Of a stretch of 64,000 bases of DNA, positions 1,918 to 61,490 are shown one piece after another. Numbering within the stretch: position 1 is the stretch's first letter; every line of letters begins with the position of its first letter. The stretch comes from Patescibacteria group bacterium (GTDB taxonomy: Bacteria; Patescibacteriota; Microgenomatia; 0-14-0-10-38-17): contig JBMNNJ010000001.1 of the NCBI GenBank assembly GCA_050953885.1, forward strand, positions 335,437 to 399,436. The letters are read 5' to 3'. Below the pieces are notes generated by a model. The model was not told the DNA's origin, did not search any database, and saw nothing but the letters and a program-made list of their open reading frames with translations. The position numbers and the translations under genes are program-made.

Positions 1918-1984
1918 AATTACTAGCTAAAGGGTAAGAAAAAATTAATGCAAAAATCAAAAATCAGAATTCAAAACCAAGTTC

Positions 1985-2140
1985 AAAGACCAAAACCATA
2001 AATTAAAACTCAAAACGCAAATGGCAAATGTTAAAACTACATGTCAAATCTTAAATCTTTCTTAGAATTTAAAATTATTTTTTCAGATTTGAGTTTTGAG
2101 TTGTAGTTTTGAGTTTTGCGATTTAACATTTGCGTTTATT
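1985..2140. repeat. MITE-like imperfect-palindrome element, family A ('CAAAACTCAAAAC...GCAAATGTTAAA' words with inverted terminal repeats)
   Basis: It is the reverse complement of 4120..4262. Its ends AAACGCAAATG...CATTTGCGTTT are inverted repeats. Confidence 0.7.
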
Positions 2141-2183
2141 TTCGCGTTAACTCGCGTATTTTAGTAATTTAACAATTTACTCT

Positions 2184-2849
2184 ATGTTCCTAAACTTGCC
2201 TCTCATCAGCTTCCCCGTCTTTGGTTTGGTGTTATTTTTGGGCTTCCTCTTTTCCTCTTTTTGGTTTTTCAAAAACACCAAAGAAGAGTTTGTTGATGAA
2301 GAGCAGGCAATCAGCTTTATTTTTTGGATTTTCTTAAGCTGGCTTTTGGGTAGCCGCGTTATTTTTTTCTCAACTAACTTTAATTCTTTTCCTTCTTTTT
2401 GGACTCTTTTTCTGCCCTGGCAATATCCCGGCCTTTCTTTTGCCGGCGGAATATTGGGGATAGCTTTGGCCGCAAAAATCTGGGCGAAAAAAAACAAGTT
2501 TAATCTTTGGCGAGTTTCTGACCCGGCTCTTTTCCCTCTTCTTCTCTTTCAAGAATTCTTTTTTCTTGGCCAATTTTTGGCCACCCAAGAAAATTTTTAT
2601 TTTTTTGCCTTTCTTATCTTTCTTGCCGGCTTTCCTTTAGGGCTTTGGATTAAGAAGAAATATCGTTCTTTTTCCTGGTATCCTTCAGGAAAAATCGGTT
2701 TGACATTTTTAGCGGTTTTCGCTGTTACCTTACTCGCCTTTTGTCTACTTGCTTTTTGCCCTCCTTTTGGGTTATACTTTGAAGGTTTAGGAGCTCTTTT
2801 AATAGGAGGGCTAGCCGGTTGGCTAATTTACCAACGTCGCCAGCCATAA
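2184..2849 (+). CDS. Polytopic integral membrane protein, 221 aa, very Phe/Leu-rich; weak Lgt-like features only
   Basis: A long ORF with multiple hydrophobic segments. A 'GG..G...AAK......K...W.VSD.A..PL' stretch loosely recalls prolipoprotein diacylglyceryl transferase but lacks the GR.GN signature. It is preceded by the common upstream ATTCGCG/TTAACAATTTA module. Confidence 0.5.
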   Translation: MFLNLPLISFPVFGLVLFLGFLFSSFWFFKNTKEEFVDEEQAISFIFWIFLSWLLGSRVIFFSTNFNSFPSFWTLFLPWQYPGLSFAGGILGIALAAKIWAKKNKFNLWRVSDPALFPLLLFQEFFFLGQFLATQENFYFFAFLIFLAGFPLGLWIKKKYRSFSWYPSGKIGLTFLAVFAVTLLAFCLLAFCPPFGLYFEGLGALLIGGLAGWLIYQRRQP

Positions 2850-2864
2850 AAATTGAGAATAAAG

Positions 2865-3275
2865 ATGGCTAAGAAAAACAAAACCCAAACCAAAAATAAG
2901 CCAGAAAAAACAGCGATTCGTTTTCCGGCCAGCGTCTTAAAGCCCGTGGGCGACTTTTTGGTCAAAGAAGAAAAGGAAATTTTAAAAAAATTGCATCTTC
3001 TTTCCAAGGAGGATCCCTTTGCCAACCCGGCCCGCTTGGCAGATAATGCTGCCCCCGATAACGAGGCCTTGGAACAAATCGATCATCTTAAAAACCAAAG
3101 CCTGCAGGAACAGATGAAAAAAAACCTTATCCAAGTACGGCGAGCCCTGACACGTCTTAAAATCGGTAAATATGGCATCTGCGAGGAATGCGGCCAAATG
3201 ATTGATACCGACCGGCTGATGATTTATCCTCACGCCACCTTATGCGTTAAATGCGAGCAAAAGAAAAAGAAATAA
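2865..3275 (+). CDS. DksA/TraR-family C4 zinc-finger protein
   Basis: The C-terminal CEECGQMIDTDRL...CVKCE four-cysteine zinc finger is typical of the DksA/TraR family, with a coiled-coil-like N-terminal part. The ORF track starts at TTG 2853; ATG 2865 (MAKKNK) is the more likely start. Confidence 0.75.
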   Translation: MAKKNKTQTKNKPEKTAIRFPASVLKPVGDFLVKEEKEILKKLHLLSKEDPFANPARLADNAAPDNEALEQIDHLKNQSLQEQMKKNLIQVRRALTRLKIGKYGICEECGQMIDTDRLMIYPHATLCVKCEQKKKK

Positions 3276-4030
3276 AAGTGGGCGTTGACTATAATTTAAT
3301 TGACTACTCCTCTTACTGGCGAAACCGAGAGTATGAATGGGAAGCAGAAAAGATTGCTTTGGAAAAATTGTTTTCCCATATCCCCGGGAAAGAACAAAAA
3401 ATAATCTTAGAAATAGGGGGAGGGTTTGGCCGTCTGGCCGCGATTTACGCCCCTTTTTTCAAAGATGTTATTCTTCTTGAGCCGTCAGAAAAGCTTTTAA
3501 AAGAAGCGCAAGCAAATTTAGCCGCCCAAAAAAACCTCACCTTTCTTGCCGGAAGAGGGGAGGCGATTCCCCAAGAGGGCAAAAGCGTTGATGTGGCCTT
3601 AATGGTCCGTGTCAGCCACCATTTTCAGGATCTTAGCCCGGTGCTAAAAGAAATTAACCGTATCCTTAAACCCCAGGGGTTTTTAATTTTAGAATTTGCC
3701 AATAAAATTCATTTCAAAGCGCGCTTGCGGGCTTTGGGAAAAGGTGATTTTTCTTTTCGCAAAAACTTAACTCCGTTTGACCAGCGCCGGCAAAGCAGAA
3801 AAGACCCCGAAGTGGTTTTCTTAAATCATCATCCCCAAGCGGTTCTTAACGTTCTTTCTGAAAATAACTTTGAAGTTAAAAAAATCCTTTCCGTTTCCAA
3901 CTTTCGCTCCCCATTTTTAAAAAAAGTTCTTCCTCAAAAATGGCTTCTTTTTTGGGAAAAAAGCACCCAAAGTATTTTGGCCCCTTTTTGGTTTGGCCCC
4001 TCAATTTTTATCTTAGCCAAAAAAAATTGA
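3251..4030 (+). CDS. Class I SAM-dependent methyltransferase
   Basis: EIGGGFGR (motif I glycine-rich loop), DVILLEPS and VDVALMV spacing fit the methyltransferase fold. ATG 3251 overlaps the DksA-like gene by 25 nt; an in-frame GTG at 3278 is an alternative start. Confidence 0.7.
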   Translation: MRAKEKEIKVGVDYNLIDYSSYWRNREYEWEAEKIALEKLFSHIPGKEQKIILEIGGGFGRLAAIYAPFFKDVILLEPSEKLLKEAQANLAAQKNLTFLAGRGEAIPQEGKSVDVALMVRVSHHFQDLSPVLKEINRILKPQGFLILEFANKIHFKARLRALGKGDFSFRKNLTPFDQRRQSRKDPEVVFLNHHPQAVLNVLSENNFEVKKILSVSNFRSPFLKKVLPQKWLLFWEKSTQSILAPFWFGPSIFILAKKN

Positions 4031-4111
4031 TCCTCAATAAGCTGCTTCTCATTAATTCAATCCGCCAGCTGGCGAACAAAAGTCAAAAATTGTCTTCTGT
4101 ATCTGGTATTA

Positions 4112-4262
4112 AATATAAAAAACTCAAATGTTAAATCGCAAAACTCAAAACTACAACTCAAAACTCAAATCTAAAAAACATTTTTAAGTTCTAAGAAAGA
4201 TTTAAGATTTAACATGTAGTTTTGCCATTTGCCATTTGCGTTTTAAGTTTATTTTTCGCGCT
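4112..4262. repeat. Family A element, inverted copy; about 95% identical to 32960..33098
   Basis: AAACTCAAATGTTAAATCGCAAAACTCAAAACTACAACTCAAAACTCAAATCT...TTTGCCATTTGCCATTTGCGTTTTAAG. Confidence 0.7.
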
Positions 4263-4288
4263 AATTCGTGTCTTTTAACAATTTTAAC

Positions 4289-4909: not shown

Positions 4910-4965
4910 AAAAAACCCATCTCTCTAAACTTTAATAAAACAAAAAGTATTTGTCAAGTCAAGGT

Positions 4966-5692
4966 AATAAGTTAAGATACATATGCGACATTGATAGTTA
5001 GTGGATCACTACGCCAAGGCCTATCCCATCTTTAGTAGAATTAAAGGCTTAAAGGAGGTGAAAAACATGCTTTCAAGCCTAAGACAATTCTCTAAGAGTG
5101 AGGCAGCTCAACAAAGAATGAAGATTATTAAGTTCTACCAACAATACGGAGAAAAAGCAACTAAGAATTAAACACTCACCTAAACCAAGGGGCTTTGGCG
5201 ATATTGTTTCTGATACCGTAGAGAGAATCACCGATGGGATTAGGGACTATTTTATCTCTACTGTTGATGCCAAGATGAAATTTGCCCTGACTCTTAATTA
5301 CCAAAGACTAACCAGTAAGAAGATGAGAGATTTTTACTTTAGATTTAAAGATGTCTACCCGGGGAAAGTGGCTGTTTGACAATCAGATAATGGCGGTGAG
5401 AACTTAGGAGTCTTTGACCAACAATTAGCTAAGGATAAGATTCCCATTATTTCATCTCTCCCCGTTGTCCTAAGATTGATACCTTGGTGGAAAGATACCA
5501 CCGCACTTCTCAAGAGGAGTTTATTAATCCCCACCTTGACACTATTCATGACAAAGGGGTCTTTCAAAGAAAACTATCTGATTATTTAATCTGGGACAAC
5601 ACGGAAAGACCCAATCATTCTTTAAACCTTAAGAGCCCCTTGGAATATTTCATTGAAAAAGGAGGCATGTCGTAAAAGTACTTGGCTTAGAC
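4966..5692 (+). mobile_element. Decayed insertion-sequence remnant (DDE/rve-type transposase fragments), copy 1 of 2 identical direct repeats
   Basis: A 727-bp block is identical to 8300..9026 (offset 3334 bp). It carries an N-terminal HTH-like ORF fragment (MLSSLRQFSKSEAAQQRMKIIKFYQQYGEKATKN*) and rve-core fragments ...SDNGGENLGVFD... and ...PRCPKIDTLVERYHRTSQEEF... in different frames. The conserved DDE Glu (ERYHRT) is present but the gene is internally deleted and frameshifted. Confidence 0.8.
5063..5675 (+). pseudogene. Transposase pseudogene (IS481/IS3-like rve integrase core, truncated and frameshifted)
   Basis: The HTH fragment stops after 35 codons. The DNGGE(N) and ERYHRT motifs lie in frames +1 and 0 respectively, about 35 codons apart as in intact rve domains. 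Total coding capacity is about 200 aa against about 350 aa for an intact transposase. Confidence 0.7.
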
Positions 5693-5698
5693 AAAAAC

Positions 5699-5727
5699 TT
5701 GACTTTTACCCCGTTGTGTTATAAGAT
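5699..5727 (+). promoter_or_regulatory. Sigma70-like promoter directly outside IS copy 1, facing the radical-SAM gene
   Basis: TTGACT (5699-5704), a 17-nt spacer, then TAAGAT (5722-5727). A strong RBS AAAGGAGAG (5951-5959) sits 6 nt before ATG 5966. Confidence 0.5.
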
Positions 5728-5965
5728 TTACGTATCTCATAATAATCAATGGTAGGCAATTTTGCTGTCTATTTTTTGGTTATTATTAAAGATCATTTTT
5801 TTCAGGCAAAGTAAGCGGTTTTTGACAAAAGCGTCAAAAAAAACCAAAATACTTTGTTTTGGAAAATATTCAGTTTTGGTCCGCCTCAGGTGGAGCACCT
5901 TGACAAGTTGTAATTACCTCCATCAATGATTCCTTCTGGCCTTAATTTATAAAGGAGAGATTCTC

Positions 5966-7294
5966 ATGTTTCGCACTCTATCCGCCCCGGTCGTTTTACA
6001 GTGGGAAGTTACTCCGGATTGTAATCATGCCTGTCTACATTGTTATAACTATTGGAGAGGGTTTGGTGAGGAGCCAAGCGCATCAGAAGATGTCTGTGAG
6101 ATCTATCGGGCTGCAACCAAAGAAATTATCTGTAACAGGGTTTTTTCTGTGGTGATTACCGGTGGAGAACCGCTTTTGGTTTTTGACCAAGTAAAGCCAC
6201 ATATCCGACAGCTGGTGCAAGCAGGCGTTCATGTTTCACTCAACACTAATTTGTCTCTTTTTAACAGACAGATAGCTGTTGAGCTCAAGGAGCTTGGAGT
6301 TCGTTCCATTTTGACGTCTCTCCCTTCCTTTGATCCGGAGACCAATGATTACATCACCCAAACCCCGGGATCTCATCGTCGGATCACCCGCGGGATACGT
6401 ACTGCTCTCGAAAGTGGTTTCAAGGTAGCCGTCAATATGGTAGTAACCAAGGTAAACCTCTCGCAGGTTTACCAAACCGCCGAATATGTAGCCAATCTAG
6501 GAGTTAAATCCTTTGCGGCTACCAAAGCAGCTACCCCAAACAACTGCCCCGATTTCAGTGCATTTGCTCTAGGCCTTGATGAATTTCGTTGGATGTTGTA
6601 CGAACTTATCAAAGCTAAAGAGCGATTGGGTCTAGAAAGCATCGATTCACTTGAATTCTACCCTTATTGTGCCTTCGACGAGGTAACAAGAGCAGTTTTC
6701 AGTAGTCGAATGTGCAGTGCCGGCAAAACCAATTGCACAATCGGTTTTAACGGCCAAGTTAGGCCTTGCTCGCGAGCTGAACATACCTACGGTGATATTC
6801 GGGAAGGGCTAACTAACGCTTGGGGTCGAATGACTCCATGGAGAACAAATGAATGGTTGCCGGAACAATGCTCAACATGTCAGTTGAAAAACAAATGTGG
6901 AGGAGGTTGCAAGGTAGACGCGCAGAGAACAACGGGGGATATCAAACAACCAGATCCAATTTGTGATTTCTCACAGTTGCCCGTGCGTTTACCTTCTGTA
7001 CGGGAACCCAGCCCTGATGGAACAGAGTTTCTTGTCAATCCTAGCATGGTCTTTCGACCGGAAAGTTTTGGAGGGATACTCTACGTTTCTTCTGGGCACT
7101 GGGCGATAGTTGTTCAGGAGTTGTATCAGCTATTTGCATCTGGAAAGGAGGTGGTGAGTATCGAAGATATCGTATCCGCTTTGGGTTGTTCTCTAAATGA
7201 GGCAACCGCTACAGTGTCGTATCTTGTTCGCAAATTCATTCTGAAGGTAGCAAAAGGGGGTTCTTATGCCAGCGGGAATTGTTTCGTTGCTTGA
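5966..7294 (+). CDS. Radical SAM enzyme with C-terminal SPASM domain and a probable C-terminal winged-helix (RRE-like) extension; candidate peptide-modifying maturase
   Basis: CNHACLHC (CX3CX2C radical-SAM cluster motif) and GGEPLL (SAM-binding). The SPASM signature is CSTCQLKNKCGGGCK (C-x2-C-x5-C-x3-C) plus upstream Cys/Gly and a downstream PICDF Cys. The ~110-aa tail (IEDIVSALGCSLNEATATVSYLVRKFIL) looks like a winged-helix peptide-binding domain. Codon usage differs from neighbouring housekeeping genes. Confidence 0.85.
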   Translation: MFRTLSAPVVLQWEVTPDCNHACLHCYNYWRGFGEEPSASEDVCEIYRAATKEIICNRVFSVVITGGEPLLVFDQVKPHIRQLVQAGVHVSLNTNLSLFNRQIAVELKELGVRSILTSLPSFDPETNDYITQTPGSHRRITRGIRTALESGFKVAVNMVVTKVNLSQVYQTAEYVANLGVKSFAATKAATPNNCPDFSAFALGLDEFRWMLYELIKAKERLGLESIDSLEFYPYCAFDEVTRAVFSSRMCSAGKTNCTIGFNGQVRPCSRAEHTYGDIREGLTNAWGRMTPWRTNEWLPEQCSTCQLKNKCGGGCKVDAQRTTGDIKQPDPICDFSQLPVRLPSVREPSPDGTEFLVNPSMVFRPESFGGILYVSSGHWAIVVQELYQLFASGKEVVSIEDIVSALGCSLNEATATVSYLVRKFILKVAKGGSYASGNCFVA

Positions 7295-7412
7295 GGAGCA
7301 AGAGGTCAGTTGCGTCATCGGCTGTGATCAAGACGGCGGTTCTGACCCGTGCGACTCTTGCGACAACGGCGGTGATTGCGTTTGTGATGCTGGGGATGGT
7401 ACCTGGACCTAA
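7266..7412 (+). CDS. Small Cys/Asp/Gly-rich peptide (48 aa), candidate RiPP precursor (SCIFF/ranthipeptide- or sactipeptide-like)
   Basis: The peptide is MPAGIVSLLEEQEVSCVIGCDQDGGSDPCDSCDNGGDCVCDAGDGTWT, with 6 Cys and 9 Asp in the C-terminal 33 residues after a short acidic leader. Its ATG at 7266 overlaps the 3' end of the radical-SAM/SPASM gene in another frame and is preceded by a GGGGG RBS-like run. It is not in the supplied ORF track because it is under 60 aa. Confidence 0.55.
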   Translation: MPAGIVSLLEEQEVSCVIGCDQDGGSDPCDSCDNGGDCVCDAGDGTWT

Positions 7413-7620
7413 TCAAAGTGGCTTGATGACGGTCACAGTATCGCCTCAGTAGTTCTAAGAGCATCTATTGGTGAAAACCAAAATCACAACTTGTTTGTGG
7501 TTGCTTTTTAAGCTAGATGCTCTTTTTCTTTTTCAAATTTGCTATAATGCTCTAAGAGAATTATCGAGGCCGTAGCGCCGCTGTATAATAATCTGAGTCG
7601 TTCATTTTAAAATAAAAGGT

Positions 7621-8283
7621 GTGGTTTTTGTCGTTAAATATTCACTAGAAAAAGATATTTGGAATCATTTGAATTCGAACTGGAGATTTCGTTTTCGAAA
7701 ATATGGAAGAAAGAATATTCAGAAAAAACTGCTTCAAACTTATCCCGAAGAATATCGCCGCAATCTCGCTCAAGCCAAAACAGAAAAAGAAGCCACGGTT
7801 GTTATTAAAAGTTTTTTAGCCTCTTTACCTAAAAGTTTTCAAAATACTACCCCAATAATTGGCAAAGGAGTCGAGAAAGTTCTGAACGAAGAAAAAAAGC
7901 AGATAATTTCTTCTTTAGAAAAACTTTATGGTAAACCTTTTCCATTTAAAGAAATAACTGTTTATCTTACCACTGGCACTATTCACCCATATAATTATAA
8001 AGAAAGATGGTTTATGACTGGAAGAAATTCCAGCCTTGATAAGCATATTAAAACCGCTAAACACGAACTTAACCATTTTATGTTTTATTACTATTATCCT
8101 CATTTAAGGAAGAAGTTGGGTGTTGAGAAATATGAAAGACTAAAAGAGGCTTTAGCAATATTCACTAATCCTGAAGGTAATGATAAGCCCGATGTAAAAA
8201 AGTTGGAGAAATATCTAAAAACGCTTTCAGGTCAACCAATGGATGAGATTATAGAGAAAGCTTTGGGAAGTAAATATTTGTAA
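7621..8283 (+). CDS. Hypothetical protein with an HExxH zinc-metallopeptidase-like motif; AT-rich (~33% GC), compositionally foreign
   Basis: A 220-aa ORF with a GTG start and KTAKHELNHFMFYYY (HELNH = HExxH). Two extended -10 boxes (TGCTATAAT 7533-7541, TGTATAAT 7582-7589) lie upstream. GC is far below the flanking genes. Confidence 0.55.
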   Translation: MVFVVKYSLEKDIWNHLNSNWRFRFRKYGRKNIQKKLLQTYPEEYRRNLAQAKTEKEATVVIKSFLASLPKSFQNTTPIIGKGVEKVLNEEKKQIISSLEKLYGKPFPFKEITVYLTTGTIHPYNYKERWFMTGRNSSLDKHIKTAKHELNHFMFYYYYPHLRKKLGVEKYERLKEALAIFTNPEGNDKPDVKKLEKYLKTLSGQPMDEIIEKALGSKYL

Positions 8284-8299
8284 GTTCTCGAGAGTACTG

Positions 8300-9026
8300 A
8301 ATAAGTTAAGATACATATGCGACATTGATAGTTAGTGGATCACTACGCCAAGGCCTATCCCATCTTTAGTAGAATTAAAGGCTTAAAGGAGGTGAAAAAC
8401 ATGCTTTCAAGCCTAAGACAATTCTCTAAGAGTGAGGCAGCTCAACAAAGAATGAAGATTATTAAGTTCTACCAACAATACGGAGAAAAAGCAACTAAGA
8501 ATTAAACACTCACCTAAACCAAGGGGCTTTGGCGATATTGTTTCTGATACCGTAGAGAGAATCACCGATGGGATTAGGGACTATTTTATCTCTACTGTTG
8601 ATGCCAAGATGAAATTTGCCCTGACTCTTAATTACCAAAGACTAACCAGTAAGAAGATGAGAGATTTTTACTTTAGATTTAAAGATGTCTACCCGGGGAA
8701 AGTGGCTGTTTGACAATCAGATAATGGCGGTGAGAACTTAGGAGTCTTTGACCAACAATTAGCTAAGGATAAGATTCCCATTATTTCATCTCTCCCCGTT
8801 GTCCTAAGATTGATACCTTGGTGGAAAGATACCACCGCACTTCTCAAGAGGAGTTTATTAATCCCCACCTTGACACTATTCATGACAAAGGGGTCTTTCA
8901 AAGAAAACTATCTGATTATTTAATCTGGGACAACACGGAAAGACCCAATCATTCTTTAAACCTTAAGAGCCCCTTGGAATATTTCATTGAAAAAGGAGGC
9001 ATGTCGTAAAAGTACTTGGCTTAGAC
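8300..9026 (+). mobile_element. Decayed IS remnant, copy 2 (identical to 4966..5692, same orientation)
   Basis: Identity is exact over 727 bp. The identical predicted ORF pairs 5355..5567/8689..8901 and 5484..5675/8818..9009 confirm the 3334-bp offset. Confidence 0.8.
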
Positions 9027-9208
9027 ATAAGGTTGCCATTTTTAAAAAAATAAGTTAAAATAACTTTTATTATGAACAAAACTCATCAAAAAAACCAGCC
9101 GGTGCCGAAAAAAGATAAAAAAGAGGTCTTAGCAAAAGCGACTTTTTTCCGTCCCCAGCCGAAAAAAATTTTTCGGGTGGCCCAGCATCGCGTTTAACCA
9201 AACTTCCC

Positions 9209-10712: not shown

Positions 10713-10867
10713 ACTAAGACACACCGGATACAACAGGATTAAATACGGATTGAACAGGATTTTTATCCTGCTTTATCCTGTAAATATCATGTGTGATCCC
10801 GTGTGCTTCGCTGACAATTTAACAATATAGCAATGAAGTTTCTGTGTTAAAATAATAACTAAATCTT

Positions 10868-10941
10868 GGGCAGTTAGCTCAGTTGGCTAGAGCGCTCGCT
10901 TGACATGCGAAAGGTCACAGGTTCAAGTCCTGTACTGCCCA
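10868..10941 (+). tRNA. tRNA-Val (anticodon GAC)
   Basis: A hand-folded cloverleaf. The acceptor stem is GGGCAGT/ACTGCCC and the D arm is GCTC...GAGC. The anticodon stem CTCGC/GCGAA has one C-A mismatch around the loop TTGACAT. The T arm is ACAGG-TTCAAGT-CCTGT, the discriminator is A, and no CCA is encoded. Confidence 0.8.
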
Positions 10942-11459
10942 CAGCAGAAGAAGATATTAAAATATTAAGAGATATTAATGCATAATAAAAAAGTGCAAAG
11001 TGCAAATATCAGAGATTAAAACCTAAATCAAAGTGCAAAAACAAAAGAAAAACTTAAATGTTAAATCGCAAAACTCAAAACTACAACTCAAAACTCAAAG
11101 CTTAATCCGCCCACGGGCGGACAAAATCATGGGTGAAATATTTGGAATGCTTGAAACGTTTGAAGTGTAAGAACAGCAAACGATTCAAGCGTTTCAAGCA
11201 TCAAGTTTTAAAGCCGATCCTGTCCGCCAGCTGGCGGATTCATCAAGATGACGATTTTTTTATAACTGCCATTCTGACGAAAGTCAGAATCAAATAGCTA
11301 AAAGTTAAAAGTTAAAATTTAAAAGTCAAAAGTACAAGTTAAAATTAAAAAGTAAAGCAAAAAACTTTTAACTTTTGACTTGTAATTTTGACTTTTGACT
11401 TTTGAATTTTGAATTATTTTTTTCGTTTCCATTCGTGTTAATTCGTGTATTTTAATTCT

Positions 11460-13211: not shown

Positions 13212-13409
13212 AGGGAATGAGAAACGAATAGATACGAAAAATAAACTCAAAATGCAAATGGCAAATGGCAAATGGCAAAACTACATGTCAAATGTTAAAA
13301 CTTTTTAAAGCTTAAAGTTATTTTTTAGATTTGATCCGCCAGTTGGCGGATTGAGTTGTCGTTTTAGTGCTGGTGCAGGGCCAGCTAGCGGAGAGGATCA
13401 TCCCCGTAG

Positions 13410-13467
13410 CCGTCATCCTGACGAAAGTCAGGATCTAACTGATTCTGAATCAAGTTCAGAATGACGC
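13410..13467. repeat. Paired hairpin modules GTCATCCTGAC-GAAA-GTCAGGATC and GATTCTGAA-TCAAG-TTCAGAATGAC
   Basis: The same two stem-loops, with minor variation, recur at 11262-11290, 14455-14530, 24097-24185, 29300-29370, 30129-30160, 32140-32235, 37940-38085 and 51585-51670. Confidence 0.7.
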
Positions 13468-13616
13468 TAATCGTGGCCGTTATTCTAACAATCCGTCAGC
13501 TGACGAATTCGTCAGAATAACAGTTACGGTCAGCCCGAAACAATGAAACAATAAACTTTCTCTTGCCAACTTTCCCTTCCTGTGCTAAACTTACTGCAGT
13601 TTGAACAAAAGCTAAC

Positions 13617-14320: not shown

Positions 14321-14578
14321 AAAAACTTGTATTAAGTAAAAATCAAAAGTCAAAAACAATAAATAAACTCAAATATTAAATCGCAATCCGCCAGCCCCGC
14401 ACCGTATGGTGCAGGACCAGCTGACGGATCAGGGCAAGCTCTAAACTTCACCAATGAAACGTCATCCTGAACTTGATTCAGGATCTGCTTTAAAATTAAA
14501 AAGCAGATCCTGACTTTCGTCAGGATGACAGTTTTAACAATTTAGCCATTTAACAGTTTAACAATTTAATCAACAACC
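14321..14578. repeat. Repeat-module insertion (palindrome plus two hairpin units) between rpmI and rplT
   Basis: It contains AATCCGCCAGC...GCTGACGGAT, GTCATCCTGAACTTGATTCAGGATC and GATCCTGACTTTCGTCAGGATGAC, the same modules seen in many other intergenic regions, followed by the TTAACAATTTA upstream word. Confidence 0.7.
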
Positions 14579-18115: not shown

Positions 18116-18146
18116 GCGCAATAAATTGCGCTATTTCAATTATTTC
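18116..18146 (+). terminator. Rho-independent terminator candidate downstream of pheT
   Basis: GCGCAA-TAAA-TTGCGC hairpin (6-bp stem, 4-nt loop) followed by the T-rich tract TATTTCAATTATTTC. A GGCCTTCGGCC UUCG-type hairpin lies at 18088-18100. Confidence 0.45.
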
Positions 18147-18213
18147 ATTCGCTCATTCGCATTAATTCGTGTTTCCATTCGCGTTGATTCGCGTATTTTA
18201 ACAATTTAACAAT
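18143..18213. repeat. Tandem array of degenerate 'CATTCGCGT' units followed by TTTAACAATTTAACAAT
   Basis: Equivalent arrays, in either orientation, lie at 2120-2183, 4250-4290, 11415-11459, 29395-29445, 30200-30290, 30961-31010, 33100-33142, 34720-34780, 35640-35690, 36550-36600, 39254-39320, 56150-56220, 58720-58760, 59340-59385 and 61440-61480. Confidence 0.65.
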
Positions 18214-21621: not shown

Positions 21622-21889
21622 GAAAACTAAAAGACGCGAATGAGAAACGAAAGAATAAAGCAAAGTGCAAATCTCAAAATGCAAAACCAAGCTCAAAAAC
21701 CAAAACCAGAAGCTGAAAATATTTTTGAACTTTGATTTAGGTTTTGCTCTTTGCTTTTTGCACTTTGCTTTTGCTCATTACACATGCTACGCATTACGGA
21801 CCTATTCGACCCACAACAATGAAACAATGTAACAATGAAATTCTGATACTTAATACATAATACTAAATACTTAATACAATATATAATAC

Positions 21890-23932: not shown

Positions 23933-24263
23933 AAAAGACGCGAATTAATACGAATGGAAAACAAATGAACGAATAGATGGTGTAAAAATAATTCAAAATT
24001 CAAAATTTAAAAGTCAAAATTGCAAGTTAAAAGTTAAAAGTTTTTTGCTCTACTTTTAAATTTTGGCTTGTACTTTTGACTTTTAGCTATTCGATTCTGA
24101 CTTTCGTCAGAACCTGTCCTGAACTTAATTCAGGAATGACGGCCACGATTAGCGTCATTCTGAACTTGATTCAGAATCAGTTAGATCCTGTCCGCCGGCT
24201 GGCGGATTGCATTTGTCTATTACCTGCAACAGTTTGATAATTTAATAATATTTATCTTTTCTT

Positions 24264-24862: not shown

Positions 24863-25055
24863 CAAATAAAAGATAAAGGCAAAGCGCAAATATCAAAAAT
24901 CAAAAACTAGACCAAAGCGCAAAGACATTTCTAATTTATGGTTTTGGTTTTTGAGTTTGGTTTTGCATTTTGCCCTTTGCGCTTTAATCTTGTTTTCTTA
25001 CGAGTTACTAACTTTTTACATTTTACATTTTCATTTTTAATTTTGACTTTTAATT

Positions 25056-26025: not shown

Positions 26026-26026
26026 A

Positions 26027-26257
26027 ATGGAAGAATTTTTGGATTATTTGATTAAACAAATTGTTACCAAGCCCGAAGAGGTTAAAATTGAAAAAGAGGA
26101 AAAAGACGGCCAGCTATTTTTTACGGTTGAGGTAGCCCAAGAAGACCGAGGTCGCCTTATCGGCCGTGGAGGCAACATTATCAACTCTCTGCGCCATCTT
26201 TTAAACATTAAAGCGCAAAAAGAAGGCAAACAGGTTTTTTTAAGACTTAACTTCTAA
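26027..26257 (+). CDS. KH-domain RNA-binding protein (YlqC/UPF0109 family)
   Basis: GRLIGRGGNIINSLRHL (KH GXXG loop), with the typical position immediately after rpsP. Confidence 0.75.
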   Translation: MEEFLDYLIKQIVTKPEEVKIEKEEKDGQLFFTVEVAQEDRGRLIGRGGNIINSLRHLLNIKAQKEGKQVFLRLNF

Positions 26258-26263
26258 ATCATA

Positions 26264-29255: not shown

Positions 29256-29481
29256 GTATCAAATAAAATTCAAAAGTTAATCCGCCAGCTGGCGGACAGA
29301 ATTATCCCCGTAGCTGTCATCCTGACGAAAGTCAGGATCTAACTGATTCTGAATCAAGTTCAGAATGACGTTTACGCAAGAATAATGTTATTCGCTCATT
29401 CGTGTCCATTCGTTTTCATCCGTGTCAATTCGCGTATTTTATTATACTTAATACTAAGTACTGAATACAAAATGCTAATTT

Positions 29482-29919
29482 TCACCATCTAGTGAGATAA
29501 GTCACCACTTCCTCCCGATGCTCGCCTTGACTGTCGGTCCAAGAAGTGGTCAGCGTAAACTTAATCTTATCTTGGCTTTCTTTAACAACATTAACCTGTC
29601 GCTTAAAAGTACTGTCAATCAACTCATTGGAATTACACCCTCGGTGGCGACCAAGATCAAGATTGTTAAGGCAATAAACACCGTCTGCAAGTTTATTCCA
29701 AAATTCTGACCAGCCCTTAGCCCGTTCCGAACGCAGCCATTCGGTGGCTTGGCGATTTAATTCCATCGCCCGCGCCCGGGTGCGGGAATACTGAATATTA
29801 CGCACCGCCACGGTAGCCCCCGCCACCAAAGCCACCAAAATAAGCATGGCAATGGCGGTGGTTACCACCACCTCTACCAACGACTGGCCGGAGGAAGAAG
29901 AGTTAGTATTAAGTATCAT
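29482..29919 (-). CDS. Prepilin-type minor pilin-like protein
   Basis: MILNTNSSSSG|QSLVEVVVTTAIAMLILVALV, with Glu+5 and a hydrophobic helix. Confidence 0.6.
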   Translation of the reverse strand: MILNTNSSSSGQSLVEVVVTTAIAMLILVALVAGATVAVRNIQYSRTRARAMELNRQATEWLRSERAKGWSEFWNKLADGVYCLNNLDLGRHRGCNSNELIDSTFKRQVNVVKESQDKIKFTLTTSWTDSQGEHREEVVTYLTRW

Positions 29920-29996
29920 GTATTAAATAAAATTCAAAATTCAAAAGTTAAAAGTCAAAAGTACAAGTTAAAATTCAAAAATAATAAATAAACTCA

Positions 29997-30140
29997 AATC
30001 TTAAATGTCAAAACTCAAAACTACAACTCAATCCGCCAGCTGGCGGATCAAATCTAAAAAAACAACTTTAAACTTTAAAAAAGTTTTAACATTTGCCATG
30101 TAGATTTAACATTTGACATTTGCGTTTTGAGATTTTTTGA
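29997..30140. repeat. Family A element carrying an embedded 16-bp perfect palindrome TCCGCCAGCTGGCGGA (30032-30047)
   Basis: The module-within-module arrangement recurs. Other perfect copies of the palindrome are at 11223-11238, 29281-29296, 32302-32317, 37994-38009, 39346-39361 and 41360-41375, with about 10 degenerate copies more. Confidence 0.7.
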
Positions 30141-30298
30141 TTCTGACTTTCGTCAGAATGACGAACCGCCTCATCCATTACACATTACTAGTTACGGCGC
30201 CAGTCATTCGCTCATTCGCATCCATTCGTTTCTCATTCGCGTTAATTCACGTCTCCCAGCAATAACAATTTAACAGTTTAGCAAGCAATATATTCTTC

Positions 30299-30769
30299 TC
30301 ACTCTATCTCCCCATTTTTCCTAATAGTTACCGTTTTGGGAGGACGACTGCCTAAATTTAGACTAATAGTAACTTCTTCAACCGATAAGTTTGTTGCCCC
30401 TGTCAAGGGAGCAAAAATAAAGCTGCTTGGATTTGGCACAGAACCGCTCACTCCTGAAGGGTAAGAATAGGTTTGGGGTGAGCCTACCAAAGAACCGCCG
30501 CATTTTTCTTGAATAAAATACCTATCACTCGCAAAACTAACTTGATAACCACCAGCGGGACCGTCACAGCTTTTTTTTACCGCCATCGCCCAACTGCGGG
30601 CCAAACGAAGATTGTTTTTTAAATCCTGGGCGGCCGCGTCCAAGGTTTGCTGTTGGTTAAAAGTTTGCCAGGAGGCCAGGCCAAAACCAGCCAAAAGCAG
30701 GATAATACTGGTGGTTACCAAAAGCTCGATGAGGGTAAAAGCAGGTTTATATTTCGTATTTAGTATCAT
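30299..30769 (-). CDS. Prepilin-type minor pilin/pseudopilin (GspH-like)
   Basis: MILNTKYKPA|FTLIELLVTTSIILLLAG followed by NLRLARSWAM. Confidence 0.65.
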   Translation of the reverse strand: MILNTKYKPAFTLIELLVTTSIILLLAGFGLASWQTFNQQQTLDAAAQDLKNNLRLARSWAMAVKKSCDGPAGGYQVSFASDRYFIQEKCGGSLVGSPQTYSYPSGVSGSVPNPSSFIFAPLTGATNLSVEEVTISLNLGSRPPKTVTIRKNGEIE

Positions 30770-31073
30770 GTATCAAATAAAATTCAAAATTTAAAATTCA
30801 AAAGTTAAAAGTCAAAGATAATAAGTAAACTCAAATGTTAAATCGCAAAACTCAAAACGACAACTCAAAACTAAAATCTAAAAAGCAACCTTAAGCTTTA
30901 AAAAGTTTTAACATTTGCCATGTAGATTTGACATTTGCCATTTGCGTTTTGAGTTTACTTTTCGCGTCCATTCGTTTTCCATTCGCGTCCATTCGCGTAT
31001 TTCATTTCATGGTAGCGAAATTAAGAAGAATTTGCAAGCAAGACAACAACAATCAAGATAAAGTAGGGGAGGA

Positions 31074-31511
31074 TTATGGTGATTTTAAGCCGTACTCATG
31101 ACCCGAGTAAGGAGTACAAGAATCAGTTGGATTACTGGCTTCCATATCTGACGATAGACAATACCCATAATAATGCCCCCCCGAGAGATTGGTGGCTTTA
31201 TAATAATAAACTTCCCCTGTTTTGGGAGGGGAAGGAATCGGAGAAATATAGTTAGCTAAAGGTGTCCCTAAGTTAGAAGTATTAGTCCAATTACCATTAC
31301 CGGTGTTGGGATACCAGTTATTATCCGCTTTATACATCTCCAGCGCCGCCCGAATTTGTTCCAAATCCGCTTTTCTTTTAGCATCCCGGGCCTGACGATT
31401 GGCCGCCTGATAGGAAACCACACCAATGGAGGTTAAAAGAGCAATAATCGTTGCCGCCACCAAAACTTCGATGAGGGTAAAACCGGGTTTGTGTTTAGTA
31501 TTTGGTACCAT
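31074..31511 (-). CDS. Type IV pilin with GspG/PulG-like N-domain
   Basis: MVPNTKHKPG|FTLIEVLVAATIIALL...ANRQARDAKRKADLEQIRAALEMYKADNNWYP, a GspG signature. Confidence 0.75.
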   Translation of the reverse strand: MVPNTKHKPGFTLIEVLVAATIIALLTSIGVVSYQAANRQARDAKRKADLEQIRAALEMYKADNNWYPNTGNGNWTNTSNLGTPLANYISPIPSPPKTGEVYYYKATNLSGGHYYGYCLSSDMEASNPTDSCTPYSGHEYGLKSP

Positions 31512-31641
31512 AAAAGACGCGAATGAGCGAATGATTGGTAAAGCACACCGGATTAAACAGGATGTTTACGGATGAAACAGGATAAAAAATCCTCTTATTA
31601 AATCCCGCCCTAAATCCTATTATATCCCGTGTGCTTTTTTC

Positions 31642-32067
31642 CTACTGTAAATTCTTAACACAAAAATAATCTTTTGGCGAACCGGCAAAATTACAATTTG
31701 CCGCTGAATTACCACCCCCCGACTCTAAGCGAGCACAAAAACAGTAACTAGTGGAGCTGCAAGAAGAACTATAAACGTAAGGGCTAACATTTTTAGGATC
31801 AGTGGGAATAGAAAAACTATTATCGGATTGAATTGGCAAAGGATTAGGACACGGAGAACCAGGATAAGAACCGCTATGTGCCGCATAATATTGCTCAAAA
31901 GCGTTTTGGATTGCCTTCATGTCGCCCTGCCTCTTGGAATCCCGGGCCCTTTTTTGGGCGGTGGAGTAGGAAACCGTGCCCATCGCCACTAAAATGCCAA
32001 TAATGGCAATAACAATCAAAAGCTCTAAAAGGGTGAAGCCACGACGGTCTTTAGTATTTGGGATCAT
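31642..32067 (-). CDS. Type IV pilin with GspG/PulG-like N-domain
   Basis: MIPNTKDRRG|FTLLELLIVIAIIGILVA...AQKRARDSKRQGDMKAIQNAFEQYY. Confidence 0.75.
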   Translation of the reverse strand: MIPNTKDRRGFTLLELLIVIAIIGILVAMGTVSYSTAQKRARDSKRQGDMKAIQNAFEQYYAAHSGSYPGSPCPNPLPIQSDNSFSIPTDPKNVSPYVYSSSCSSTSYCFCARLESGGGNSAANCNFAGSPKDYFCVKNLQ

Positions 32068-32418
32068 GTGTTAATAAAATTCAAAATTCAAAAGGCAAAA
32101 GTCAAAATTGCAAGTTAAAATTCACTTCGCCAGCTCGCGGATTCGTCAGGATGACAACCACAATTAGCGTCATTCTGAACTTGATTCAGAATCAGTTAGA
32201 TCCTGACTTTCGTCAGGATGACAGCTACAGGGATGATTCTGCCCGCCAACCGGCGGATAAAATTCAAAAATAAAGCAAAAAAACTTTTAACTTTTTACTT
32301 GTCCGCCAGCTGGCGGATTGAATTTTAACTTTTAACTTTTGAATTTTTCTATACTTAATATTATTTTTAATCCCTTTCCCTTTTTTAACTATACCTCATC
32401 CTTTCTCCAAAAAGCAAG

Positions 32419-32907
32419 TCATGGTTCCGTGCGCATAATACCCACATCATTAGGGCAATCCACCCCTAAATTTGCCTCCACTACCGCATCAGGATCGGAT
32501 TTGTTTTCCAAACAAGCAACCAGTTTATAAGTCAAGTTATCACCGGCAACTCGGGGTTTAACTAAAACATAACGCCAACCGACACTTCCTGTTTGAGGAT
32601 CACAAGGAAATTTAGGCATATAAATTGTTCCCTTCGCTGACTGCCAAGAAGCATTACAATCTACCGGTTTACAAAAAGAATCACAAGTTACTGGTCGAAA
32701 AGGGTCGCCGCCAGTCGGATAAGCCGGCGGTGATTGGTCCATTTTGTAAAGTTCTAAAGCTTTCTGGATTTGCTCCAAATCCGATTTTCTTTGCGCGTCG
32801 CGCGCCCGCTCCCGGGCGCTCATATAATTGGGCAAAATCAAGCCCGCCAAAAGGCCGATGATCACCATCACCACCAAAAGCTCAATAAGAGTAAAACCAA
32901 ATTTCAT
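32419..32907 (-). CDS. Type IV pilin with GspG/PulG-like N-domain
   Basis: MKFG|FTLIELLVVMVIIGLLAG...ARERARDAQRKSDLEQIQKALELYK. The likely start is the internal Met (MKFGF), 8 codons into the track ORF. Confidence 0.75.
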   Translation of the reverse strand: MKFGFTLIELLVVMVIIGLLAGLILPNYMSARERARDAQRKSDLEQIQKALELYKMDQSPPAYPTGGDPFRPVTCDSFCKPVDCNASWQSAKGTIYMPKFPCDPQTGSVGWRYVLVKPRVAGDNLTYKLVACLENKSDPDAVVEANLGVDCPNDVGIMRTEP

Positions 32908-32959
32908 TGTTTCATTGTTATATTGTTTCATTATTGGGAGATAAATAATGCGTAATAAA

Positions 32960-33098
32960 CAAACTCAAAACTCAAATGTTAAATCGCAAAACTCAAAACT
33001 ACAACTCAAAACTCAAATCTGAAAAACACTTTTAAGCTCTAAGAAAGATTTAAGATTTGACATGTAGTTTTGCCATTTACCATTTGCGTTTTGAGTTT
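32960..33098. repeat. Family A element (near-identical to 4120..4262)
   Basis: Direct sequence comparison. Confidence 0.7.
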
Positions 33099-33144
33099 AT
33101 TTTTCGTGTCCATTCGTTTTCCCTTCGCGTTAATTCGCGTCTTT

Positions 33145-33636
33145 TTAATCGCAACTCGTGTTCGCGCTGGCCAGACAATAATTACATTTTGTCGGCCCGC
33201 AATTAGTGCCAAAATAGCCTCCCTCTTTGCAAGCTCCCCCGGGCAAAAAACAACTATCATTCTCATGCTCAATCCAAGCATAAAGCTTAAAGTTGGTGCC
33301 GTCTGACATATAAAAATAGTGGGCATTATCCGCCGGATCCTTGGGGAGTTGTTTCATATAAGTAGTTTTCCCGTCAGTAAATTCTCCTCCCCAATAAATA
33401 GTCGCCACCCCGGGAATCATAATATTGCCCTCATTTCCACCGGTGCTTAAAGGATATTGCTTGTGATCATTATAATACATTTCTAACGCCCGCGCTATTG
33501 ACGCTAAACTCTCTTTTCTTTGCGTATCTCGACCTCGTTTTTGGGCGGTAAAAAATTGCCCCAAGCCCACACTTGCCAAAATTCCCAAAATCGCCACCAC
33601 CACGAGGAGCTCGATCAGGGTAAAACCAAATTTCAT
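33145..33636 (-). CDS. Type IV pilin with GspG/PulG-like N-domain (paralog of 32419..32907)
   Basis: MKFG|FTLIELLVVVAILGILAS...AQKRGRDTQRKESLASIARALEMYYNDHKQYP. The 5' leader is nearly identical to the neighbouring paralog. Confidence 0.75.
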   Translation of the reverse strand: MKFGFTLIELLVVVAILGILASVGLGQFFTAQKRGRDTQRKESLASIARALEMYYNDHKQYPLSTGGNEGNIMIPGVATIYWGGEFTDGKTTYMKQLPKDPADNAHYFYMSDGTNFKLYAWIEHENDSCFLPGGACKEGGYFGTNCGPTKCNYCLASANTSCD

Positions 33637-33762
33637 TGTTTTATTGCTATATTGTTTCATTATTAAAAATTGCAATAAATTTGTCTACCTCTCCTTTGTA
33701 GGGGGCACACCTTCCTGGCCGAAACCAAACGGGTTAGAAAATCAAAACCCCCTGCTAACCAA

Positions 33763-34470: not shown

Positions 34471-34772
34471 GTATCAAATAAAATTCAAAAGGCAAAAGTA
34501 AAATGTAAAAAGTTAGTAACTCGTGAGAAAACAAGATTAAAGCGCAAAGAGTAAAGTGCAAAACCAAGCTCAAAAACCAAAACCAAAAGTTAAAAATATT
34601 TTTGAGCTTTGATTTAGGTTCTAATCTTTGCGCTTTGCTTTTTGCGCTTTTTTATTACATATTACGGATTACTGATTTTGAATTTTACATTTTTTTGCCT
34701 TTTGAATTATTTTTGCGCCAGTCATTCGCTCATTCGCGTCCATTCGCTTTTATTCGTGTTAATTCGCGTTTT

Positions 34773-35621: not shown

Positions 35622-35897
35622 AAATTAACACTAATGAAAACGAATGGACGCGAATGAGCGAATAAGAATGAAATGTGGGGGCAAAACTATGTTTTCGTCC
35701 CCGCGGACAAGATAATATATTTTTTGGCCTAATTTTGTAGGGGCGTATTGCAATACGCCCCCCTCGGGCGCCTACAAGAAACACCCCTACAACACGCGCT
35801 TTTCTTGGCGCAAACTAAAGTTCGCTCCTCCACTTTTAGAAAATCACCCACTTTCGGCACAAAAACTCCCTTCACTAAATCCCAACCCAAAATATCC

Positions 35898-37821: not shown

Positions 37822-38182
37822 AATTAATATAGAAAGATTATCGTCGCAACAAAAGTCAAAATCAAAATCGTTAAAAGTCTAAATTTAAGAGCTAAAATTC
37901 AAAATGTAATCCACCAGCTGGCGGACAAAATTATTCCTGTAACCGTCCCGTAACCGTCATTCCTGAATTAAATTCAGGACAGGCTCTGACGAATCCGCCA
38001 GCTGGCGGACAGAATCTGCGTTCTTTAAACATTAATAACGATTCTGAATCAAGTTCAGAATGACGCTAATCATGGCCGTCATTCTGACAAATCCACCAGC
38101 TAACGGACAAAAGTTAAAAGTTTTTTACTCTACTTTTGAATTTTGACTTGTACTTTTGACTTTTGCATTTTGACTTTTAACT

Positions 38183-61414: not shown

Positions 61415-61490
61415 GGAGATAAATGATTAAAAGACGCAAATTGACACGAATAGGAAACGAATAGACACGAAAAATAATGAAAAAATCCAA

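Follow-up and report, generated by a model that had tools for sequence, protein, structure and literature searches.

Intergenic DNA of a Shapirobacteria-like bacterium as a probable mosaic of nested, hairpin-forming repeats

We examined a 64,000-nucleotide stretch of DNA from a Patescibacteria group bacterium (contig JBMNNJ010000001.1, positions 335,437 to 399,436; hereafter the window), whose intergenic spacers carry short palindromic repeats. Our results suggest that this intergenic DNA is probably a mosaic of repeats that are non-autonomous and form hairpins, and that insert into one another, take one another's place and recombine. The elements are multicopy, dispersed, nested and hairpin-forming; they are exchanged between close strains and lie at rearrangement junctions, and individually they appear to be dispensable. 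They are probably recently mobile, in the manner of selfish DNA. The mosaic is of a known general kind, resembling repetitive extragenic palindromes (REPs), bacterial interspersed mosaic elements (BIMEs) and miniature inverted-repeat transposable elements (MITEs). Its particulars are a scaffold of heptamer arrays, deep nesting, a host in the Candidate Phyla Radiation (CPR), a CGTC-type REP that is identical across phyla, and arrays in frame within CPR genes.

The repeat vocabulary comprises three families of long palindromes (A, B and C) and nine smaller modules. A BLAST map made with twelve consensus sequences covered 36% of non-coding bases versus 0.3% of coding bases; about a fifth of the window is non-coding. 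An earlier note on this DNA had proposed that essentially every intergenic region over 100 bp is built of such modules. This was largely borne out: 28 of the 37 gaps of at least 80 nt scored in the map, and one more (61415-61571) holds an F array that the map overlooked. The gaps that did not score include two insertion sequence (IS) remnants, the rpsB leader, which has no modules, and one or more small genes that lack annotation (KhpA, 26026-26263). Modules G, H, I (TAATAC), J and K were added to those already described, and the nesting of the long element with a 16-bp palindrome, hairpin pairs and ATTCGCG arrays was found to involve real modules, far above chance.

Family A is an AT-rich imperfect palindrome of about 135-150 bp, present in both orientations. 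The window contains seven full or interrupted copies and three left-arm fragments, and two further copies lie in adjacent contig parts outside it.

2000-2140, plus strand: family A palindrome, period-7 arms around cores AAAACTACATGTC / GAGTTGTAGTTTT; -44.9 kcal/mol, z = -7.5
4117-4262, minus strand: family A palindrome, inverted relative to 2000-2140; minus-strand fold -42.9, z = -5.4
13240-13360, plus strand: family A copy with a truncated arm and one additional GCCATTT unit
29988-30140, minus strand: family A copy with a 16-bp palindrome (30032-30047) inserted between CAACTCAA and TCAAATCT
30826-30962, minus strand: family A copy, from alignment and BLAST
32960-33105, minus strand: family A copy, 93% identity to 4119-4269; z = -8.3
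41258-41400, plus strand: family A copy holding the 16-bp palindrome and a second palindrome CCTGCCTTGCCGGCAGGCAGG
11049-11105, plus strand: half copy of family A (left arm), with a C-type array before it and a variant of the 16-bp palindrome after it
14362-14386 and 51542-51564: A-left fragments similar to that at 11049-11105

Copies reach 88-95% identity over 130-150 nt. The earlier note had reported that the element at 4120-4262 recurs near 33,000 and, inverted, from position 1985. A repeat finder recovered both: 4119-4269 and 32967-33117 match without gaps at 93%, and 2006-2083 and 2079-2140 are reverse complements of the two halves of 4119-4269 (91% and 95%). The start at 1985 was about 15-20 nt too far left, and 1951-1998 is a C-type array to the left of the copy at 2000-2140. 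Among the more diverged copies it had listed, the loci at 13243, 29997, 30826 and 41260 were aligned, and 10990-11110 shrank to the half copy at 11049-11105. By BLAST, 30826-30960 was 88% identical to 32968-33144; the copy at 29990-30140, with its palindrome insertion, was 77% identical. In a MAFFT alignment of the seven copies, homology spanned both arms and a loop of about 40 nt. Since the loop aligned along with the arms, the copies are homologous and more than similar simple sequence. Identical composite junctions recur at unlinked loci, and 13240-13360 and 29988-30140 share the same 16-bp-palindrome junction.

The arms of family A are arrays of AAAACTC-like 7-nt units (Tandem Repeats Finder, TRF). 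The left-arm units run in the order AAACTC, AAATGTT, AAATCGC, AAAACTC, AAAACTA, CAACTC, AAAACTC, and an irregular 13-nt core, AAAACTACAACTC, changes the heptamer phase. The A/B core CAAAACTACAWSTC was matched 13 times versus 0.08 expected. The motif AAAC[G/T]CAAATG[T/G][T/C]AAA stands on the plus strand at the left end and on the minus strand at the right end of each copy, with 16 matches at no more than two mismatches versus 0.16 expected. The termini, (AT)AAAC[T/G]CAAA...TTTG[A/C]GTTT(AT), are thus terminal inverted repeats, as had been claimed. The claimed internal palindrome was likewise recovered: all A copies fold as long imperfect hairpins (z = -3.6 to -8.3 versus shuffles), and over all elements folding gave long imperfect hairpins throughout (z = -3.6 to -9). 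Four window A copies lie between genes that run in the same direction, and in all four the sense strand gives the better fold; in family C this preference was inconsistent. The copy at 2000-2140 lies between dnaB and lgt, next to a short F+G array (2141-2179), and together with that at 4117-4262 it encloses an lgt-dksA-methyltransferase operon. Family A shares with MITEs a small non-coding body, terminal inverted repeats and dispersed multicopy occurrence. Its flanks are A/T-rich (AATAA before, TTTTT after), with no consistent direct duplication visible.

Families B (AAAAGTC-type) and C (CAAAGTG-type) are built on the same architecture as A. All three are AT-rich palindromes of 120-150 bp whose arms, of degenerate 7-nt units (AAAANNN versus NNNTTTT), surround a conserved phase-shifting core, AAAACTACAACTC / ACATGTAGTTTT.

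11293-11420, plus strand: family B palindrome of AAAAGTC/AAAAGTT/AAAATTC heptamers, core AAAAGTACAAGT
23983-24104, 42147-42276, 39329-39452, 38100-38184 and 29924-29985: other copies or parts of family B
32071-32347: family B, divided by nested inserts
21655-21790, plus strand: family C palindrome of CAAAGTG/CAAAGCG/CAAAAAT heptamers
24867-25044, 34480-34662 and 51484-51540 (half): other copies of family C
47010-47125 and 60136-60262: C2 variants

More than 25 period-7 arrays were found in the window by TRF, in addition to period-8 and period-10 arrays, and all ten period-7 arrays from a lag-7 scan were intergenic. Tandem arrays of a 7-nt unit in intergenic DNA are the pattern of short tandemly repeated repetitive (STRR) sequences. 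REPs are GC-rich palindromes of 20-40 bp that carry a GTAG or CGTC tag. Families A, B and C, being AT-rich, tagless and heptamer-built and measuring 120-150 bp, are therefore not classed as REPs. They are MITE-like heptamer-array palindromes: their size and copy number, their terminal inverted repeats and their polymorphism are those of MITEs.

Nested within or beside these palindromes are short GC-rich hairpins of three kinds.

39346-39361: module D, 16-bp GC palindrome TCCGCCAGCTGGCGGA, a perfect palindrome
4061, 11223, 13335, 24191, 29281, 30032, 32302, 37910, 37994, 39386, 41360 and 42282: module D, example copies
13405-13475, plus strand: module E, head-to-head REP-hairpin dimer, CGTC/TGTC-tagged, E1 CGTCATCCTGACGAAAGTCAGGATC and E2 CGTCATTCTGAACTTGATTCAGAATC
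29309-29370, 32163-32228, 51600-51663, 24097-24190, 14460-14529, 38040-38071 and 30139-30163: module E, other copies
35737-35761, plus strand: module K, GTAG-tagged REP-like hairpin GTAGGGGCGTATTGCAATACGCCCC, -15.9 kcal/mol
About 53355-53385, 56124-56146 (reverse complement) and 59300-59335 (reverse complement): module K, other copies

The 16-bp palindrome gave 20 matches versus 0.2 expected, and 19 intergenic copies at no more than three mismatches. It is often flanked by an A-rich and a T-rich heptamer arm, which yields a terminator-like hairpin with a T-run. The strongest matches to an intrinsic terminator in the window were 16-bp palindromes with a T-rich arm after them, and several had a bidirectional shape; the A copy at 29988-30140, with its inserted palindrome, ranked first. 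Promoter and terminator consensus scans showed no overall enrichment, and individual 16-bp-palindrome matches alone stood out.

Modules E and K have the features of REPs. E1 and E2 are multicopy palindromic hairpins of 25-26 nt, and all 12 module E matches were intergenic. E1, a 25-mer with a 7-8-bp stem and a GAAA loop, was present in seven copies at no more than two mismatches (0 expected), tagged TGTC in four, CGTC in two and TGCC in one; the E2 copies examined carry CGTC. At 13405-13475, 29309-29370, 32163-32228 and 51600-51663 the two form extragenic head-to-head dimers with the tags outward, a layout also present in strains L151, L156 and L136 (L numbers denote the contigs compared). Judged by its sequence, the hairpin pair for the most part fits the CGTC-tagged REP super-family as set out in the available excerpts of Di Nocera et al. 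(PMC3733652). Module K is extragenic and combines a GTAG tag with a GC-rich hairpin; it has only 4-5 copies in the window, and variants occur in L116, L147 and L001. E1 was identical over 25 of 25 positions in seven IMG/VR contigs of 67-73% GC, where head-to-head dimers were also found. Identity across a 30-point gap in GC suggests horizontal spread or a very constrained recognition site. A BLAST search of the E hairpins against plasmids gave chance-level matches only, and the A-core pattern had no match in viral contigs.

The remaining modules are mainly direct arrays of short period (F, G, I and J), which lie at gene boundaries.

18145-18213, plus strand: F array (ATTCGCG/ATTCGTG, period about 10), then G array (TTTAACAA, period 8)
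58757-58856, plus strand: H palindrome of AACAGGAT units; other copies at 10716-10815, 31540-31641 and 46933-47012
35094-35127, minus strand: J array (CGTAAT units), in frame in the prepilin peptidase gene pilD, encoding ITHYALPITNY
51449-51482: intergenic J array

ATTCG arrays were matched 10 times versus 0.5 expected. The window has about 18 F arrays, each at a gene boundary with its TATTTTA end toward the gene. The prepilin peptidase gene (34773-35621) carries a second in-frame array, CATATAGCC in three units at 35251-35293, which encodes MAIWLYGYM. The intergenic J array lies in a 926-nt non-coding stretch (50762-51687) adjoining a tyrosine recombinase gene (49811-50761); within it, 51107-51172 is very AT-rich with tandem repeats of 16-20 nt.

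These elements are real features of the genome. The window has 41% GC and is closely packed with housekeeping genes. Those identified, with a Pfam scan of 40 open reading frames (ORFs), include DnaB with an intein, Lgt, ThrRS, PheST, PBP1, RecG, NusB, RNase III, GyrBA, PPDK, DnaX-RecR, CysRS and RpsB-Tsf-Frr, and a type IV pilus cluster with about eight pilin paralogues. RpsB was 85% identical to an NCBI protein named 'Candidatus Shapirobacteria bacterium', with farther matches in Microgenomates and Patescibacteria; the host is therefore a CPR bacterium, Shapirobacteria-like. JGI metagenome contigs (3300060679 among them) match window DNA at 100% identity, as do many independent assemblies from ENA, Logan and NCBI. 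The earlier note had allowed that the similarity might be confined to the window or reflect assembly artefacts, and both doubts were removed. The same elements recur in independent assemblies, and in five or more independent runs or samples the short-read contigs stop at window positions 2113 and 4149. Both positions fall within the inverted A arms, which is where a genome-wide repeat should break contigs. Further copies of A, B, C, D, E, F and K occur in sister species and outside the window on the same genome, including an A copy upstream of dnaB and combinations such as B+D and K+F+G; in all, about 80 kb of genome sequence was examined. Nesting reaches three levels between thyX and glyA, where D lies inside A inside C (L107 6731-7078); the 16-bp palindrome in A, A in C and REP dimers in B were also observed.

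Strains were compared through contigs encoding proteins exactly identical to window proteins; gene identity was 95-100% and the spacers differed. Eight orthologous spacers carry different modules between strains with identical flanking proteins, which indicates that the turnover is recent.

frr-rseP spacer: 4-unit F array in the window; K, 5-unit F and G in L115 and L116; H palindrome in L114
recG-rpmF spacer: 333 nt in the window; 42 nt in L119
pilB-pilT spacer, allele 1: intact B palindrome, 187 nt
pilB-pilT spacer, window allele: B, two 16-bp palindromes and a longer F array, 217 nt
pilB-pilT spacer, allele 3: B-like outer arms around C+J, 349 nt
pilT-pilC spacer: outer heptamer arms identical, interiors wholly different; 361 versus 195 nt
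tRNA-Val flanks: H or REP dimer upstream, 500 or 190 nt downstream; recombinant combinations exist
Pilin spacer 32960-33105: A in the window; CGTC-REP dimer and J array at the same site in L151 and L152
Pilin spacer 30826-30962: A in the window; REP dimer and 16-bp palindrome in L156 and L160
lgt upstream spacer: long F array in L007

F units, together with a B palindrome, a REP dimer and a 16-bp palindrome, make up the 291 nt by which the recG-rpmF spacer of the window is longer, and L119 is a close relative at 95-98% identity. Between pilB-pilT alleles the F arrays have 2 versus 5 units. Presence/absence and replacement polymorphism of this kind is what mobile elements show. In L157 an A element forms a rearrangement junction (pilin-A-rpsR), and the junction lies exactly at the A end (L157 1470-1761). 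The sister species (85-89% RpsB identity) use the same vocabulary in other arrangements at orthologous spacers. In the metagenome collection, even the nearest PilB relatives were only about 50% identical (at most 52%); they lacked the vocabulary and allowed no orthologous comparison. Strain differences, copies elsewhere and the place of two modules in known REP super-families support the earlier suggestion of several recently active MITE/REP/BOX-like families.

Other differences from the window were recorded in the same contigs. Junctions inside genes occurred in L124 at 880-960 (29948 / 28678), L110 (59699 / 58504), and L002 and L010 (2797); these could be real variants or assembly chimeras. 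In L138, at about 1640-1700 (orthologous to 10868-10942), the 3' half of tRNA-Val is swapped for unrelated sequence of equal length. Two direct repeats of 728 bp (4966-5693 and 8300-9027), 100% identical, are a degenerate rve-type IS remnant with frameshifts and flank a radical-SAM/SPASM gene (5966-7294) and a 220-aa ORF (7621-8283). The 4.3-kb block (4910-9208) is absent in L136, L139, L144 and L145, where a 206-aa gene lies about 230 nt from trigger factor; the block looks like a composite-transposon-like insertion. The DnaB helicase gene (22-1917) is split by its intein, which has a LAGLIDADG homing-endonuclease domain.

Gene leaders were also noted. The motif GGTTGGTGGTAAAAT, with the extended -10-like TGGTAAAAT, occurs at 61498-61512 and at 53328-53342 (minus strand). 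It is kept upstream of rseP in L114-L116, L146 and L147 while the modules downstream of it vary; this conservation suggests that it is likely a genuine promoter, in which case the F array would lie within the 5' leader. The rpsB leader (63352-63458; L146 9892-10000; L147 2646-2755) has no modules, a clear AAGGAGG Shine-Dalgarno sequence and an internal inverted repeat. It is conserved in two sister species and is possibly an S2 autoregulatory leader; it had no Rfam match, and over the window at gathering thresholds Rfam matched tRNA-Val only. The pilin paralogues (29256-34470) share a leader, ...TTTTGAATTTTATTTGATAC-ATG, without Shine-Dalgarno sequence, and at many genes in this region U-rich or array-derived leaders abut the start codon. 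Pilin number and order vary between strains.

Arrays with the family A core extend beyond this species. An exact 26-mer over the irregular core was found at nine loci in eight other metagenome-assembled genomes (MAGs) of 35-48% GC. Their labels were Gottesmanbacteria, Parcubacteria (two loci in one MAG), Saccharibacteria, Patescibacteria and one 'uncultured bacterium'; three more carry the bin label 'Gammaproteobacteria', with a CPR-like heptamer-arm context. The same 26-mer search of the GTDB representative set did not find the present species. Two of the nine loci lie downstream of pth, and there the array forms a complete hairpin in which GC hairpins are nested. At four, the A-rich arm is in frame within long ORFs (IleRS, PolX, a PduO-type adenosyltransferase and a membrane protein), and the IleRS array is a 15-residue insertion relative to PDB 8c9d. 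The A-rich strand was the sense strand at all six loci where array and ORF overlap, because GAGTTTT arrays hold TGA in every frame; in two of these six the overlap is at the very 5' end and probably precedes the true start. The IleRS of Parcubacteria SURF_57 (L017 659-4369) has 1236 aa and three in-frame heptamer arrays, KLKSQISKLKTTTQN, KTQNSELKTQNHNEK and IKNQESRIKNQE. It also has a large additional segment after residue 299 of the 356-residue aligned excerpt, past the solved-structure alignment.

The observations suggest how a mobile mosaic might arise. New copies would insert into the loops or centres of existing palindromes, as indicated by interiors that vary while the outer arms stay and by D nested in A in C. 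Insertion could be catalysed by a trans-acting, hairpin-recognising enzyme, for example a REP-associated tyrosine transposase (RAYT) or an IS200/IS605-type HUH transposase. Whole cassettes would also be exchanged by ectopic recombination, with shared flanking F, G and B modules as the homology; that most alleles are replacements and that recombinant alleles exist point this way. The elements would be co-transcribed with neighbouring genes, their RNA folding into long hairpins, and a GC palindrome with a T-rich heptamer arm may terminate transcription intrinsically, often in both directions, or stabilise 3' ends. A terminator, stabiliser or RNA-hairpin role is thus proposed from predicted folds and motif matches.

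Several results weigh against a mosaic of mobile repeats. The Pfam scan of 40 window ORFs revealed neither a Y1 or HUH transposase nor an intact IS, and the precomputed Pfam labels of the flanking contigs listed none either. The sole IS-like sequence in the window, the 728-bp rve-type remnant, has ends unrelated to those of A. There were no convincing target-site duplications at A copies or 16-bp palindromes; 4-nt TCAA/TTGA flanks surround the palindrome in just 4-5 of 16 copies, and they are unconvincing as duplications because heptamer arrays give such flanks by chance. Terminator-like sites in total did not exceed shuffles (24 versus 30.5; 35 versus 29.4). Covariation among the seven A copies was uninformative (three pairs with double changes), and the orientation of A relative to transcription (5 of 6) was not significant, with an extra copy in L107 breaking the rule. 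Most allelic differences are replacements and not clean filled-versus-empty sites, a pattern that fits recombination as well as transposition. In large part, the allelic data are explained equally well by cassette exchange.

These replacements also invite a different account, which we consider unlikely: the modules may be immobile functional punctuation (terminator, 3'-untranslated-region, promoter or leader cassettes), maintained by selection and shuffled by recombination or gene conversion. They do follow a stereotyped order in the sense direction (stop, G', F', (J), palindrome, B-arm or F-G, start), and F arrays always lie at a gene boundary with the same end toward the gene; five of seven transcription units with a 5' F array also have an inverted 3' F array. 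The 16-bp palindrome with its T-run resembles an intrinsic terminator, cassettes are replaced between shared modules, and allele combinations around tRNA-Val are recombinant. However, L119, at 95-98% identity, copes with a 42-nt recG-rpmF spacer that lacks the 291-nt mosaic, and such dispensability weakens the functional account. Unrelated modules occupy one and the same spacer in different strains (F versus K+F+G versus H), and the sole clearly conserved leader, that of rpsB, is module-free. Palindromes set exactly inside palindromes and in-frame copies in genes are hard to reconcile with function, and the identity of E1 in genomes of 67-73% GC points to horizontal spread of a selfish element.

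A more speculative reading, which we consider improbable, is that the heptamer-array palindromes are a distinct, CPR-wide self-propagating class with a dedicated enzyme that makes or copies arrays, driving cassette exchange and rearrangement. An array with the irregular core AAAACTCAAAACTACAACTCAAAAC is exactly conserved in this genome and in MAGs labelled Gottesman-, Parcu- and Saccharibacteria. If this were true, the elements would colonise spacers and, in the stop-free orientation, essential genes, and the arrays would serve as landing pads for REPs and as portable homology for the exchange of terminators and leaders.

It is very improbable that the heptamer arrays are products of slippage, akin to variable-number tandem repeats, with symmetry arising by local inverted duplication and likeness between loci by convergence. 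Unit number does vary, as in the additional GCCATTT at 13250-13279 and in the F arrays of pilB-pilT (2 versus 5) and upstream of lgt, and heptamer arrays of many differing unit sequences occur in unrelated CPR loci. Pure slippage is contradicted, however, by several features: unlinked A copies conserve a loop of about 40 nt that is not repetitive and keep their differing units in the same order, copies reach 88-95% identity over 130-150 nt, composite junctions such as ...ATAATAAATAAACTCAAATGTTAAATCGC recur at six or more loci, and the exact 26-mer, irregular core included, occurs in other CPR lineages. Guide-RNA arrays, whether CRISPR-like or of the tandem interspaced guide RNA (TIGR)-Tas type, share with the present elements a CPR host, in which TIGR arrays are common (PMC12045711), short-period hairpin-forming arrays with variable positions between conserved ones, and escape from standard annotation, but can be rejected almost outright. 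A TIGR unit spans about 36 nt, in which edge and loop repeats of 8-12 nt alternate and are set apart by 9-nt spacers A/B, and the units cluster beside a Nop-domain Tas gene (PMC12045711). The arrays here have period 7, 8 or 10 and are dispersed over about 28 spacers; none of the 40 ORFs scanned has a Nop/Tas or Cas domain, and Rfam matched a tRNA only.

A mobile repeat mosaic would matter in several respects. CPR genomes are regarded as small and streamlined; here much of the non-coding DNA is a fast-evolving mosaic of nested hairpins. Short-read CPR MAGs break exactly at these repeats, and the repeat layer is therefore systematically missing from databases; this offers an explanation for fragmented CPR assemblies, and mosaic differences could serve as strain-typing markers. 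The repeated insertion into palindrome centres makes this a tractable natural system for REP-like movement, and it raises the question of whether such elements provide terminators in reduced genomes. In-frame heptamer arrays in essential CPR genes may account for some unexplained protein insertions.

Comparison with known repeat systems places the mosaic among several of them. The BIMEs and REP clusters of Escherichia coli and other enterobacteria are intergenic mosaics that combine a GC-rich palindromic unit with other short motifs in variable combinations; they are co-transcribed with their neighbours and have been proposed as terminators or mRNA stabilisers. The mosaic described here resembles them in its small vocabulary, GC-rich palindromic unit and variable combinations in spacers. 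It differs in the dominance of AT-rich heptamer-array palindromes of 120-150 bp, which BIMEs lack, in its deeper nesting (D in A in C) and in its reduced-genome CPR host. The Correia elements (NEMIS) of Neisseria and other bacterial MITEs such as RUP, BOX and ERIC are intergenic sequences of about 100-150 bp with terminal inverted repeats and tens to hundreds of copies. They are co-transcribed, their long hairpins are plausible RNase III substrates, and they show strain polymorphism and a role in rearrangements. Family A is like them in size, terminal inverted repeats, intergenic location, hairpins, polymorphism and rearrangement. Unlike them, it has no demonstrable TA or other target-site duplication, the window showed no IS whose ends match, and its interior is a heptamer array and not unique sequence.

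The cyanobacterial STRR heptanucleotide tandem repeats were reportedly described by Mazel et al. in 1990, and small dispersed repeats (SDR) nested in STRR are said to have been described by Elhai et al. in 2008. The likeness lies in intergenic 7-nt arrays, in tiny palindromes inside arrays, hairpins and each other, and in lineage-wide vocabularies. The present units are AAAACTC-type versus CCCCAGT-type, in an unrelated phylum, and here, unlike in STRR, the arrays are inverted arms of a discrete, copyable element of 120-150 bp with conserved loop and termini.

According to the available excerpts of Di Nocera et al. 2013 (PMC3733652), which also summarise REP roles, the CGTC and GTAG super-families have a tag and a hairpin, are mostly head-to-head dimers and extragenic, and can insert as dimers within longer palindromes; CGTC REPs have no known dedicated transposase. 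The same excerpts describe the super-families mainly in Proteobacteria and do not name CPR among the phyla (PMC3733652), and full-text literature searches found no description of REPs or REP-like/intergenic repeats in CPR/Patescibacteria. The E1/E2 hairpins of 25-26 nt agree with this description as extragenic, multicopy, inverted head-to-head heterodimers that can fold as one hairpin; their tag is CGTC or TGTC, and four of seven E1 copies depart from CGTC REPs in carrying TGTC. Module K has the GTAG tag, of the RAYT-associated class, and a GC-rich stem. REPINs (Bertels & Rainey 2011, PMC3116915) go with a single-copy RAYT gene, a Y1 HUH transposase flanked by its cognate REPs; no Y1_Tnp match was found here in the 40 window ORFs or the flanking-contig Pfam labels (about 80 kb). 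Modules E and K would widen the host range of both super-families. Palindromic repeat sequence in frame in essential genes, as in the IleRS array and J in pilD, recalls the Rickettsia palindromic elements (RPEs), of which RPE-4 and RPE-6 are CGTC REPs in the same excerpts (PMC3733652). Unlike RPEs, only one A-rich arm lies in genes, never a whole palindrome, and these arrays may have arisen by in-situ slippage instead of insertion. Overall, the nearest known counterparts of families A, B and C are cyanobacterial STRR arrays and the BIMEs of E. coli.

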